Part shown: positions 7,294 to 53,396 of the stretch, one piece after another
How positions within the stretch are numbered: the stretch's first letter is position 1
How the letters are laid out: every line of letters starts with the position of its first letter
Assembly (NCBI GenBank): GCA_964016885.1
Contig: OZ024740.1
Coordinates: 379,874,001-379,938,000 of the forward strand
Reading direction: 5' to 3'
Length of the DNA: 64,000 nt
Source of the DNA: Eledone cirrhosa
Taxonomy: Eukaryota
Notes under the pieces: generated by a model
Told to the model about the DNA's origin: nothing
The model's input: only the letters and a program-made list of their open reading frames with translations
The model's database searches: none
Program-made: the position numbers and the translations under genes

Positions 7294-7477
7294 AGGAACG
7301 AGTAGGACCCCGACGGCTGAGTTCAAGCCGTTTCGACGGCTAATTCTGGACGCGTCGAAACGGCTTGAGCTCAGCCGTCGGGGTCCTACTCGTTCCTATT
7401 ACCCACTCTACTACCCTAAGTATTGAGTACTTTAGTGCGTTATGGTCCACCTGGTTTCTTACCACATTTCCTTCGTT
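7294..7477. mobile_element. Mini Penelope-like insertion: inverted pair of pLTR ends in (TA)n
   Basis: Both arms match 21968-22105. The minus arm ends at TTCCT and the plus arm at TTCCTTCGTT, each running into (TA)n. Confidence 0.9.
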
Positions 7478-7796
7478 ATATATATATATATATATATATA
7501 TATATATATATATATACATATATATATATATATATATATATATATATATATATATATATATATATATATATATATATATATATATATATATATATATACA
7601 TATATATATACATATATATATACATATATATATATATATATACATATATATACATATATATACATATATATATATATACATATATATATATATACATATA
7701 TATATATATATATATATATATATATATATATATATATATATATATATATATGTATATATATATATATATATATATATATATATACATATATATATA
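7478..7796. repeat. (TA)n microsatellite
   Basis: Direct observation. Many shorter (TA)n, (CA)n, (GA)n and (TAGA)n arrays occur throughout the window. Confidence 0.98.
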
Positions 7797-7906
7797 GAAA
7801 GATTTGAATGGATACAGTTTAGTTGAAAGGAATTTATTGACACGTGTTTCTATAACAGTTACATAACCTAAAACAGCTGCTATCTACAAACTTTTAGTTA
7901 TGCAGA

Positions 7907-7952
7907 CATTCAATATTTCAATGTTATTATTTACTGTCATTTCATCAGAATA
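7907..7952 (-). ncRNA. Degenerate minimal hammerhead motif
   Basis: Minus strand reads ATT-CTGATGA-AATG-(14 nt)-CATT-GAAA-TATT-GAAT. Stem I and the cleavage triplet are imperfect. Confidence 0.45.
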
Positions 7953-8970
7953 ATATTACTGAGGACCTATTTAGTTTTTATAGAGAATATTAGGAGGGAG
8001 GGGTGAAGTTGTTAGAAGAATAGTTGAAGGAGTGGTTTTTCGATAGCAGTGAGAATTCTTGGTGGCAGTGAGTAATTAGATTCCCATCTGTTGTTTTGAC
8101 ATTTTTTATAGAATATATTATTGGTTATTTTTCTAAATCTATAGAAGGATTAGAGATAGTAAAGATATGCGTGGTTGGTTTTGTGTTTGCACTTAATTAA
8201 CATTCAGACTTAAATTTTTCTTTCAAGTGTACGTATCCTTTCACCCACGCATTCACACACAAATATATTTGCACACCTCTACAAAATACATATACTCACA
8301 ATTCACATATTCATACTTACATATATATACACATGTATACACATATATATACACACATGTATTCATGTACATACATACGCGCTCATGTGTATACATTTTC
8401 ATACTCAACTTATCTTTATATACACACGTATAGACACACACATATATACATACATACTCTTGTCCATGTGTACACACATACACATACATACACATCCATA
8501 TACATATGCATATATATATTATATATATATATATATATATATATATATATATATATATATATATATATATATATATATATATATATATATATATATATAT
8601 ATATATATAAGCACTTTAATACATGAATACACTTACATCTAACTATACACATCAAACATATATATATATTTACTTATTTATATACATTTTCACATATATA
8701 TACATACTTATGGACGTTTTTAGACACATTCATTATCGCATATTTGTACCTATTCTCATCAGCATATCTTTCCATTATTAGTGTGGTAATTTAAGGTTAT
8801 TAATATATGTTGAGAAGAGATTGTTTTTATATTTTTCTAACTAGATTAAGGTTTATATAGTTGGGGGATGTCCCTCTTTTATGTAATATTCGGCTTGTAG
8901 TGGGAAAAAAGGGTTTTAGTTCTGTGACGGCAGAATAATATATATATATATATATACATATATATATATA

Positions 8971-9178
8971 CCGACATCCAGAGTTGACATTGCACTCAGT
9001 GCTCCTTTGAGATCCCCTACATGGACACACTAGAAGAGGAAGACCAAGGTTAACGTATGTTGATGCCCTAAGAACAGACACTGGTCTGTTGGAGACGCAG
9101 GACATGGCAGCGATAATGAGGGACAGAGACCGCTGGAGAGAACTCGTCCATGGATCTCAGGAATTTTACCCGCCTTAG
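8971..9178 (+). mobile_element. 3' end of RTE-type LINE (5'-truncated), in (TA)n
   Basis: Translates as ...GHTRRGRPRLTYVDALRTDTGL...[12 protein letters not shown]...*, a typical RTE C-terminus. A second copy is at 14936-15031. Confidence 0.8.
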
Positions 9179-9651
9179 ATATATATATATATATATATAT
9201 ATATATATATATATATATATATATATATATATATATATATATATATATATATATATATACATATATATACATATATATATACCAGTAGAGTTGATTTGAG
9301 GTACCATTGGGTTGCTATTTCTCTTAGATCGAATGACCATATCGAAACTTCATCGTGGGAACGTCAGTGGAAAATTTGTTTCTAACAGTGAAGCGGTAAA
9401 GTAAAGGGGTCTTAACTCTTGATGGATTCGTAAGGGCACAATCCTAACACTCGAATGACTGGAAATTTTAAACATGTGGGAGCCCAGCACTCTCCAGATT
9501 GGAACAAAGCGGGTTTCTTAGAGATTTATAGATAGATAGATAGATAGATAGATAGATAGATAGATAGATAGAAAAGAAAGAGGGTGAAAGAGAGAGTGAG
9601 AGACAGAAAGATAGAGAGATTGAGAGATAGAGGAGAAAAGTGTGTAATGGA

Positions 9652-9804
9652 CTGTTACTTTATTTATTGACCTCGAAAGGATGAAAAGCAAAGTCGACTT
9701 CAGCGGGATTTGAACTCAGAGCGGAACAAATAACTTAGTGAGCTGGAACAAATACCGAGGCGTTTTTAATCCGACGTTCTAACAACTTTGCCCATTCGCC
9801 ACCT
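9652..9804 (-). mobile_element. SINE, family A-related (diverged)
   Basis: GAGTTCAAATCCCGCTGAAGTCGACTTTGCTTTTCATCCTTTCGAGGTCAATAAA on the minus strand. Confidence 0.8.
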
Positions 9805-50609: not shown

Positions 50610-51392
50610 TTATTTATTTATATTCTCCTTACAACACCAACATACTTTCCGAAACCCGGCCCGGCGACATGCCACTATACTTTCGGGCTACATCTGGGAC
50701 CTCCAAGATAATAATATAACCTACAATCTCAGTTGGAGCGTACTGTCCAGAGCTAACTCTTACACGGGAAGACGCCGTCCGTGTAACTTATGCTCGGAGG
50801 AAACATTACAAATGCTGTTTTCGAAGGACCAACTCCTAAACAAGAAAGACGAACTGGTAACCGCATGCAAACACAGATTGCGTAGGACTTACCTCGCCCT
50901 CAAACCTCATAACGACCCGGGTGGGTAGACAAGGGCTGATACCCCCCACTTGCAAAATAAGTTAGGGGAAACCCCAGCTTACATAGGTAGATGTACCTCT
51001 TTTCTTTTCCTCTATGTTGTCTTCTTCCCCCTGTCTCATCCTATCACTTCCTTCCACCCCCGATCTTCTTCCTCGTCTGTTTTTCCCCTTCCGCCTACCC
51101 CGATGCAGCCCATCGGTCCTCTGTAGCCTCAGCACCCCACCCCTGTAATTTTAAGATAGAATTGGCCGAATACGCTTTACTAACTATTTATAGCAGATGT
51201 GTTAGACCCCTGTAATTTTGCATCATTTTTGTTACTACTCCAATTCTACAATTTCAATATTTCTTATTTAGTATTTTCTATTCTCAACCCATTAACCTGT
51301 AATTGTAAGATAGCATTGGCGGATTACGCTTTACTAACTATTTATAGCAGCTGTGTTAGACCCCTGAAAAGTTTGCATTATATTTTTTCACT

Positions 51393-51581
51393 TGGGTGGT
51401 GGATTGGCAGTATCGGTAGAGAGTCGGACGCCATGCTTTGACGCATAGAGTTACGGCCCTTGCCATTCTGAGTTCAAATCATGCCGAGGTTAACTTTGCC
51501 TTTCATCCTTACGGGGTCAATAAAATAAAGTACCAGTAATACACTGGAATCATTGCTGTCCTTGTGCCAAAAGTAGAAACA
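51393..51581 (+). mobile_element. SINE family A nested in Penelope 3' UTR, 16-bp TSD
   Basis: TSD ATTATATTTTTTCACT at 51377-51392 / 51582-51597. Confidence 0.95.
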
Positions 51582-52058
51582 ATTATATTTTTTCACTACC
51601 CACTTCTACAATTTCTTATTTAGTATTTTCCATTCTCAAATTATTAACCTTTTCTATAGCTTTGGCCGTACAAGCAACACCTACTAATTATAGCAGCTGT
51701 CTCTAGACTCTACTGTTTTTTTTTAAAATTAATTTCTCACTATCTAATTTTATATATTTTCTTTATATTTCTTTCTATTATTTTTTATTGTCCCCTACTC
51801 TCATTTGACTTACCTATTCTATTACTTCCCTCCTCCATTTTCTCCAGAACAATTTTTCGCCTTTTCATACACTATCCATAGAATCTGGTGTATAGATTTC
51901 ACTTTCAACGCTTGACCGGCTCCACTCACTCCCTCATCGTTCTACAGGCAACTTCAGCCACCCCTACCCCCCACCAAATGCCATGACAGACTTATTTGTG
52001 TTTACAACAAATTTTGACCAATCCTCTTGACAACTACAATCTTCCCATATAAGGAAGT

Positions 52059-52154
52059 ACCCCTTGACAAGTTCGGCTATTTATTTACCAGGGTAAAAAT
52101 TCTAATTTAGTCCAGAAATAGCCGTCGAAACGGCTTGAGCTCTGCCGTCGGGGT
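52059..52154 (+). ncRNA. Extended type I hammerhead, U3-A8 core (TTGACAA)
   Basis: ACCCC-TTGACAA-GTTCGGCTATTT...AAATAGCCGTC-GAAA-CGGC-TTGAGCTCT-GCCG-TC|GGGGT. Confidence 0.85.
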
Positions 52155-52271
52155 CATACTTTTTCCTATATGTATATATATATATATATATATATATATA
52201 TATATATACACATACATACATATATATATATATATGTATGTATGAATGTATATATATATCCCCGCGCGGAC

Positions 52272-52629
52272 ATATATGCGCGGGGACATAGAAATAGTTG
52301 GGCTGGACAACGGATCGCGCGGTTAAACCACTGAGAGTGAAGGACCCCTAGCATTTGTCAGAGCATTCTTCTAGGAGAAGGCAACTCAGGAAACTGGGAT
52401 AACTCCGATATAAAACCTGCGGCTCAATAGTTACCGATGATGTTGATCTTTTCTTCTTTTCGGGTTATAGCTACTGTCGCTCAGAGAGAGGGACTGGCTC
52501 AGTGCACAGTCTTTCCTCACTTTAAAAAATATCTTAACGCACAGGCATTGCACGATAGAATTAATTAATAATTATTAACAATGGTATATCGTGCAATGGC
52601 CATACTCGATAACGAGAGGGCAGCCATCA
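52272..52629 (+). mobile_element. Unclassified ~355-bp non-coding interspersed repeat, copy 1
   Basis: High identity to 53566-53923. It has a CTAGGAGAAGGCAACTC...AAAACC motif reminiscent of RTE UTRs, a 3' hairpin CATTGCACGATA/TATCGTGCAATG, and is embedded in (TA)n. Confidence 0.75.
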
Positions 52630-52742
52630 TATATATATATATATATATATATATATATATATATATATATATGTATGTATGTATGTATGTATGTATGTAT
52701 GTATGTATGTATGTATGTATGTATGTATGTATATATATATAT

Positions 52743-53396
52743 AGGAACCAGTAAGACCCCGACAGCTGAGCTCAAGCCGTTTCGACGGCTAATTCTGGAC
52801 TAAATGAAAATTTATCCTGGTATTTAAATAGCCGATCTTCTCAAGGGGTAATTCCATATATGGTCAAAGTGATTGTCAAAAATCAGTAGTAATTCTGTGG
52901 TTGCAAATTAGTAGGGGAGATGGTGGCTAAACCTGCCAGTAGGAGAAAGAGGGGAGGGGGTGGAGTAGACCCAATCAAGCGTTGGTAGTGCCAGCTACAG
53001 CTGGACATGAGGTCAAAGAAGATACAGGGGAGGGGGAGGGGGAGGTAGTCGGAACGGTAGGTAGAACAATGGGGGGTAGAAAAATATATATAGGAAAGAA
53101 AAAATACTGAGAGTGAAGAAAAGCAAATAAGTGTAAAGAAAAAAGTAAAGTAAATTAAATTCTACGACCTAGGTCTCAGGCTATTGTTAGGCTAGGATAA
53201 AATAAAGAAATAAATAAATAAAGAAATAACGAAATAAGTAAAAGAACTAGGTGGGACGGAATAGGCAAGGACCCTTTTAAGAGGTATAAGTACGTAAAGG
53301 GGTCTTACTGGTTCCTATTACCCACTCTACTACCTCAAGTATTGAGTACTTTGGTGCGTTATGGTCCACCTGGTTCCTTACCACATTTCCTTCGTT
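52743..53396. mobile_element. Penelope insertion: inverted arm (52743-53296, diverged subfamily) plus forward tail (53299-53396)
   Basis: The minus arm is homologous to 21750-22025 and ends at TTCCT. The plus arm runs from GGGGTC to TTCGTT, with (TA)n on both sides. Confidence 0.9.
52756..52849 (-). ncRNA. Extended type I hammerhead, U3-A8 core (TTGAGAA)
   Basis: Minus strand reads ACCCC-TTGAGAA-GATCGGCTA...TAGCCGTC-GAAA-CGGC-TTGAGCTCA-GCTG-TC|GGGGT. Confidence 0.85.

Follow-up and report, generated by a model that had tools for sequence, protein, structure and literature searches.

The 64,000-nucleotide stretch of Eledone cirrhosa DNA studied here (contig OZ024740.1, positions 379,874,001 to 379,938,000 of the forward strand; called the window below) carries a decayed Penelope-like retroelement with Hydra-clade motifs and five insertions, each of which, judging by its sequence, joins two 3' fragments of such an element in inverted orientation. 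An earlier note had proposed that the insertions arise by a programmed two-primer mechanism, in which the two nicked strands of a (TA)n target prime reverse transcription at two fixed TA-containing sites of the RNA, one terminal and one internal. The features concerned, in window positions, are the following.

18867-22104 (+): parent copy, a decayed Penelope-like element that bears Hydra-clade motifs and has a long 3' end
18866-21000 (+): its broken open reading frame (ORF), in three in-order pieces (18866-19510, 19615-20505, 20509-21000)
21917-22013 (+): type I hammerhead in the sense strand, predicted to cut between 22007 and 22008
22021-22027 (+): site 1, the short end, TA-containing, at the base of hammerhead helix I
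22033-22058 (+): hairpin 1 of the tail, decayed in the parent copy
22099-22105 (+): site 2, the long end
7295-7476: two-armed insertion, short arm 7295-7352 (-), long arm 7353-7476 (+), overlap ~44 nt
13191-13350: two-armed insertion, short arm 13191-13248 (-), long arm 13249-13350 (+), overlap ~16 nt
22371-22580: two-armed insertion, long arm 22371-22530 (-), short arm 22531-22580 (+), overlap ~51 nt
26098-26207: two-armed insertion, long arm 26098-26147 (-), short arm 26148-26207 (+), without overlap
52744-53395: two-armed insertion, short arm 52744-53298 (-), long arm 53299-53395 (+), overlap ~17 nt
13071-13148: inverted partial duplicate of the 13191 insertion, across (TA)n
50634-52166 (+): 5'-truncated single-armed copy with a short end, interrupted by another repeat

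A self-BLAST of the window, followed by arm-by-arm alignment, recovered the five head-to-head insertions at the places claimed; together with 13071-13148 they are all the two-armed insertions that it returned. Every one of the five combines a long with a short end, 80 nt apart (22104 and 22024 in parent-copy coordinates), and all ten arm ends adjoin (TA)n; the short arm of 13191-13350 stops 4 nt before the usual place. The arms overlap in four of the five, by 16-51 nt as computed from element coordinates entered by hand; in the fifth, 26098-26207, a 30-nt gap separates them and the long arm halts at the 3' base of hairpin 1. The earlier label of "mini-insertions" fails for 52744-53395, whose short arm of ~555 nt is collinear with the parent 3' untranslated region (UTR; score above 200 of 200 shuffles) and contains a whole hammerhead with a U3-A8 core. 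The long arm of the same insertion begins at the first base past the predicted hammerhead cut, that of 13191-13350 begins at, or 3 nt ahead of, the cut, and that of 22371-22580 has a small duplication within hairpin 1. The 5' ends of six arms fall within 20 nt (parent coordinates 21961-21981), on stem II of the hammerhead, at its 3' strand and its loop, which is likely to be a polymerase stall point. Two copies in the window are single-armed, the parent copy with a long end and ~50634-52166 with a short one. At even odds, five mixed pairs out of five have p = 0.03.

The parent copy is 3.24 kb long, slightly 5'-truncated, and flanked on either side by (TA)n. Its broken ORF encodes an N-terminal region, a reverse transcriptase (RT) with YRDD, a CxCX5C linker (CNCPDGSLC) and, at the C terminus, a GIY-YIG nuclease with CxxC and CxH (CNLC and CKH). 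VIY..YIG is present, with no cysteine between the two halves, and there is no CCHH. The decayed sequence reads RLRWR at the RW[RK] motif and SEKT at the D/EKT motif, where 12 aligned relatives carry DKT or DKS. The protein is 55% identical to another protein, P0004, across 262 residues. Profile matches are weak, that of GIY-YIG to the parent having an E value of 0.09 and that of the relatives to RVT_1 one of 6e-5, with Pfam scores under the cut-off. The presence of RT and GIY-YIG in one (broken) ORF, the hammerhead, and the inverted arm with a one-sided tail point to a Penelope-like element; RW[RK], D/EKT, CxCX5C, CxxC, CxH, the lack of CCHH and the (TA)n target point to the Hydra clade. RT followed by GIY-YIG, the motifs, a 3' hammerhead and (TA)n insertion are all shared with the clade as published (Craig et al. 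2021, PMC8557442). Members of that clade generally have a canonical hammerhead core and are generally under 3 kb, whereas here the core is a U3-A8 variant, present in two whole copies, the tail is 80 nt and the length is 3.2 kb. U3-A8 is a described hammerhead variant (PMC4209133, cited here and below, like PMC11167929, PMC3846280 and PMC11702581, from the sections consulted). The family is not the published Hydra-1_Obim, whose hammerhead and ends differ. Tandem or partial-tandem copies, with a 5' pseudo-long terminal repeat (pLTR), are absent from the window and found in many relatives. The exact patterns of the family gave no match in metagenome or viral contigs, protein alignment found no relatives of the parent protein in viral contigs, a search with the nuclease piece alone gave no match, and no solved structure of a relative was found.

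The hammerhead has a long stem II and, in the parent copy, a decayed core; whole versions lie in the short arm 52744-53298 and in 50634-52166 (core at 52064, cut predicted after 52149). The minimum-energy fold of both whole copies is the hammerhead three-way junction, with z values of only -1.3 and -0.5, and a motif finder matches both, along with three other places in the window. Rfam yielded no hammerhead match in the window, only sub-threshold hairpin and microsatellite matches. The reading of the stem II loop as holding an intron was rejected, since 24 nt is too short. Stem III (21988-22007) is capped by a 9-nt loop consisting of two nucleotides, a 6-nt palindrome and one nucleotide, a geometry that we take to be that of retroviral dimerisation loops. 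The short end lies 17 nt past the predicted cut, and hairpin 1 starts ~5 nt after site 1. Intact versions of hairpin 1 occur at 7405-7430, 53324-53349 and 22440-22415 (- strand), the three strict matches in 57.5 kb, against a shuffle mean of 0.04 and a maximum of 1 in 100 shuffles.

The same hairpin is found in relatives of the element, and there it is found twice. Relatives were fetched by protein alignment (78 loci, 60 families). Between their hammerhead and start codon lies a repeated structure of the form GCTC, variable inner stem, 2-nt bulge, GAGCAC; in the window's hairpin 1 the outer G-C is replaced by A-T on both sides. Among the 35 families that have at least 150 nt ahead of the ATG, 23 have two copies within 170 nt of it, eight have one and four have none, whereas two hairpins never arose in 7000 shuffled sequences. 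The two copies are 57-83 nt apart. The first inner pair, for which the search pattern did not demand complementarity, is complementary in 46 of 46 hairpins (16 T-A, 30 C-G; shuffle mean 35.6, 0 of 5000); by a scripted count, complementarity holds for the second pair in 27 of 42 and for the third in 23 of 29, and is at chance level for the fourth. TAT or ATA occurs within 10 nt ahead of the hairpin in 34 of 46 cases (TA dinucleotide frequency 0.20 versus 0.08). The 23 two-hairpin families supply 12 internal 3' ends, nine of which lie 1-4 nt ahead of a hairpin (five at the first, four at the second; p about 5e-12 versus uniform); one of the others is at -16 and two are inside the hammerhead. Three published Hydra consensus sequences also show the motif, judged by eye. 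A UTR of 40-100 nt containing hairpin 2 separates the long end from the ORF in the relatives, and the idea that the long end runs directly into the ORF start was dropped on that account. The long end is thus probably not the RNA terminus that the earlier note had assumed, but internal: its counterpart in relatives falls within the 5' UTR of the following tandem unit, just ahead of the second hairpin. The absence of hairpin 2 from the window is expected, since the window copies end before it; by analogy with the relatives, we predict it after site 2 in tandem copies of the window's own family. Full-length direct copies start at site 1 or 2, just past (TA)n (L083:5891, L050:981, L054:965, L004:3010), so that both sites also act as 5' joining points. 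At two further loci, L002 and L003, a (TA)n array lies within site 2.

Public sequencing data extend the short end beyond the window. Four public runs were aligned to the parent copy at 80% likeness, and the commonest loose end among those listed is at 22027, where (TA)n follows. It accounts for 3996 reads of X7 and 3777 of X8, both runs of restriction site-associated DNA (RAD), and for 248 contigs of X1, another run of a matching organism. The short end is a fixed site outside the window too. Reads passing the ends of the aligned stretch numbered 10708 and 11885 (either end, the 3' end being far deeper). Among the 15 joints listed, 13 change strand, and 87 further joints stand outside that list; one joint, 21969/22061, is similar to the 26098 junction and recurs in seven X1 contigs with a summed depth of 254. 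Piles of read ends at 21974 and 20897-20900 were rejected as features, as they match RAD restriction sites.

Long and short ends were also paired in a second host, an animal whose DNA had been binned into the genome G001. Sixty stretches (360 kb), 20 chosen mainly by hairpin matches and 40 by hammerhead matches, were searched for head-to-head pairs of the same family, classed by BLAST and by eye. Sixteen of 17 resolved pairs, from at least ten families, are long-short and none is long-long (p = 1.4e-4 at even odds), which makes chance an unlikely source of the mixed pairing. Hairpin-bearing, Hydra-type families contribute ten of 11 (three in L088, two in L097, and one each in L089, L100, L101, L117 and L131), and families of other clades six of six (L105, L106, L111, L125, L126, L127); in the latter the nuclease has CxxC where the ORF is readable, the tails are ~25-42 nt, and no tandem copy of a non-Hydra family occurred among the fetched loci. 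Left out as unresolved were L108 and a pair in L097, both because of a contig end; L109 and L122, for want of a third copy; L107 and L110, on account of their repeat tails; and every single arm. L014 holds one further long-short pair, outside the 17, with an overlap of ~180 nt. Long arms halting in or at hairpin 1, as at 26098, recur at L088 10683 and in L035. From these data, long-short pairing appears to be the rule and appears to have gone undescribed.

Several observations stand apart from this argument. Animal retrotransposon DNA is present in four bacterial genome bins, G001-G004 (L079-L084, L085-L144), and G001 gives ~200 hammerhead-like matches, many on short contigs. The window itself looks like microsatellite-rich animal DNA. 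It contains two copies (52273-52628 and 53567-53925), 90% alike, of a ~350-nt repeat with a terminal hairpin, ending in (TA)n; a 190-nt repeat resembling a short interspersed element (50420-50615, 51398-51592 and ~15 more places), copies of which lie beside and inside the 50634 element; decayed frames at 11638-12180 (+) and 35013-36708 that by eye resemble the apurinic/apyrimidinic endonuclease and reverse transcriptase of long interspersed elements; and, at 57980-61500, a 3.5-kb (TA)n array interrupted at short intervals by G or C. Beside the 7295 insertion, a 58-nt unique piece (7190-7247) lies between two (TA)n arrays and has no second copy in the window. The start of a long arm coincides with the predicted hammerhead cut, or lies no more than 9 nt from it, at 53299 and 13249 in the window and at L095:1308, L089:4360 and L100:5280; this pattern, noticed post hoc, is possibly a genomic footprint of self-cleaved RNA, which would differ from the anole data discussed below. 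In L095 a 10-nt piece that begins at the same point is found in inverted form on the other side of a short (TA)n.

Uneven ends are a known hallmark of these elements, and half of the two-primer mechanism has already been shown in another clade. The protein of the anole element Poseidon nicks and extends both strands in vitro at AT-rich targets, reverse transcription starts at two internal sites bounding the tail, and a dimer is predicted (PMC11167929). All four properties have observed or proposed counterparts here. In contrast, the anole tail of 30-40 nt lies inside the ORF start, whereas the sites described here lie in the 5' UTR; and the anole start site is unlike its target, whereas both sites here are TA-rich like the target and each precedes a repeated hairpin. 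The consulted sections of that paper give no account of inverted arms or of long-short pairing, the word "inverted" occurring once, for a blocking group. Supplementary figure 1 of the same paper shows GAAAG twice in the anole RNA, 34 nt apart, a spacing close to the length of one tail and a starting point in the search for a repeated signal in the Poseidon clade. Inverted pLTRs of Penelope and of rotifer elements share the head-to-head arms, the tail on one arm and the overlap at the junction (PMC3846280; PMC8557442, Fig. 2 legend). There, in contrast, the tail was called optional and left uncounted, and was ascribed to self-priming with an antisense strand as template, an idea drawn from palindromes at the junctions (PMC3846280), or to nuclease resolution of an intermediate (Craig et al., PMC8557442). 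Neither the main text nor the supplement text of PMC8557442 describes a hairpin pair or counts end pairs, and nothing further on the matter is present in the consulted parts of PMC13282606, PMC3681739 and the preprint 10.64898/2026.07.22.740005. The hairpin pair, for which no description was found in the literature searched, appears undescribed as a mark of the ends; older works (Arkhipova 2006; Evgen'ev and Arkhipova 2005; Pyatkov 2004) may hold related ideas.

LINE-1 (L1) elements use the poly(A) end of their RNA for the first primer, and their internal priming site is not fixed. In L1 twin priming, as in the model considered here, the second target strand primes inside the RNA through microhomology and a 5' inversion results (PMC11702581). 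The earlier note had contrasted the overlapping arms with the non-overlapping arms of L1. Strictly this does not hold, since L1 junctions carry duplications in ten of 32 cases (and deletions of 1-10 bp in 22 of 32); what survives of the contrast is the size, 1-10 bp in L1 as against 16-51 nt here. The window insertions differ further in having no poly(A), two fixed sites, and overlaps of 16-51 nt or a 30-nt gap, and do not belong with the L1 type.

The long and short ends are likely to mark two reverse-transcription start sites. We consider it probable, though well short of settled, that a dimer of the protein engages both hairpins of a single RNA and primes the two nicked strands at the two TA-rich sites. 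Each subunit would hold one hairpin of the same RNA, and each of the two nicked (TA)n strands would anneal at one TA patch and prime there. The downstream enzyme would then either stall at hairpin 1, leaving a gap as at 26098, or displace the upstream cDNA and reread the same RNA, producing an overlap; the two cDNA ends would be joined head to head afterwards. The dimer is borrowed from the prediction published for Poseidon, a member of another clade. A dimer on one RNA would produce mixed pairs without any extra rule, and would fit both the hairpin spacing and the long arms that stop at hairpin 1. As copying would begin upstream of a hairpin, short-ended copies would keep no hairpin and long-ended copies only one. 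Both hairpins would then come together only at tandem junctions, which would explain why copies of more than unit length are reported as needed (PMC4209133, discussion); only tandem arrangements would yield fully competent RNA. Much of the earlier proposal is retained in this model. Two fixed TA-containing sites, priming by both target strands and a programmed rather than random pairing are supported by the read and contig data, the relatives' ends ahead of hairpins and the second-host count. What falls away is the terminal position of the long site and part of the novelty.

The placement of both hairpins on one RNA is favored over the use of two RNA molecules, one per subunit and perhaps joined through the palindromic stem III loop, site 1 being used on one molecule and site 2 on its partner. 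Two molecules would spare the overlaps in four of the five window insertions any strand displacement. Two stem III regions are predicted to pair with each other at -28 kcal/mol, and dimeric hammerheads have been proposed for Penelope-like elements (PMC4209133). At 52744, moreover, the predicted cut is where the long arm begins, while the short arm reads through it, as if one of two templates had been cut; at 13191, L089, L095 and L100 the long arm likewise begins no more than 9 nt from the cut. The two-molecule arrangement nevertheless strikes us as unlikely: it gives no reason for joining a long to a short end when no long-long pair is seen among 16 pairs with a long arm, it leaves unexplained the conserved spacing of the hairpins and the stops at hairpin 1, and the anole element did not need hammerhead cleavage in vitro (PMC11167929). 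More doubtful still is the possibility that the hairpins act on DNA, with a single priming event and a second end generated by a nuclease cut or by a polymerase folding back or stopping at a TA patch, on cDNA or on a tandem copy. Published suggestions of nuclease resolution (PMC8557442) and self-priming (PMC3846280) are in its favor, as are the finding that the Drosophila nuclease required the tail for DNA recognition (cited in PMC11167929) and the direct copies whose 5' end is at site 1 or 2 (L083, L050, L054). Fold-back on new cDNA, however, requires one arm to lie inside the other, which fits one of the five window insertions, and it was on RNA that the anole sites were mapped, as starts of reverse transcription (PMC11167929).

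Two other explanations were considered. The insertions could be non-autonomous short units copied whole, their uneven ends inherited from a few founders. The 13071 copy does repeat the 13191 junction, and the joint recurring in seven contigs could be read in the same way; but no two of the five window insertions share a junction, at least four subfamily signatures are found among them, and the second-host pairs come from at least ten families, so that we find this explanation very improbable. The least credible of all is that two independent insertions landed back to back. These elements do accumulate in the same (TA)n arrays; yet no (TA)n separates the arms, whereas neighbors in the second host that did insert independently are of different families and are parted by (TA)n. 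Both arms share the same subfamily segment in four of four testable insertions, and shared private variants largely refute independence; a permutation test on the segments (2 of 24) has weak power.

Several points weigh against the model of a dimer on one RNA. It was derived from sequence for Hydra-type elements, and the second hairpin of the window's own family is extrapolated from relatives, in which the hairpin pattern was written after the motif had been seen in the same loci. The anole start site lacks target homology and is the same on both strands (PMC11167929). Strand displacement is an assumed step that the overlaps of 16-51 nt, and of ~180 nt in L014, would require. Exceptions to the pairing exist as well. 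One second-host pair, L097 6607-10416, is short-short, though internally complex; and since the hairpin-based choice of 20 of the 60 stretches undercounts short-short pairs, the safer figure is that of no long-long pair among the 16 with a long arm (p = 0.0015). The 13071-13148 duplicate has the junction and private variants of the 13191 insertion and an outer end outside any (TA)n array; it may stem from DNA-level fold-back or from a second round of copying within one event, and counting it lowers the window's mixed pairs to five of six (p = 0.11). Both arms of the Repbase entry Penelope-13_HM appear, by our arithmetic, to end 36 nt past helix I. Single-armed copies are common, the two in the window included, and two arms are thus not obligatory. 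Short ends, finally, make up ~30% of the reads at 22015 (3996/13107 and 3777/13419), below the half that strict pairing gives, a ratio made unreliable by RAD sampling and partial alignments.

It is tempting to speculate that programmed twin priming is the normal integration route of Penelope-like elements, each new copy losing its signal in the process; we hold this wider reading tentatively, as a little less than an even prospect. Under this wider reading, every two-armed insertion would receive one end of each kind, and the Hydra clade would be the one in which the signal is plain to see, whereas other clades would carry a repeated motif of their own, one tail-length apart. Penelope-like elements are the closest mobile relatives of telomerase, and the origin of their inverted arms and one-sided tail has been named an open question (PMC8557442). 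The anole study located two start sites, and its consulted sections do not state what sets or pairs them (PMC11167929). A covarying hairpin that is repeated twice, with element ends 1-4 nt upstream of it, makes the mechanism directly testable. If the model is correct, it would explain the need for tandem copies and would supply a two-ended insertion enzyme that targets microsatellites with a compact RNA handle.

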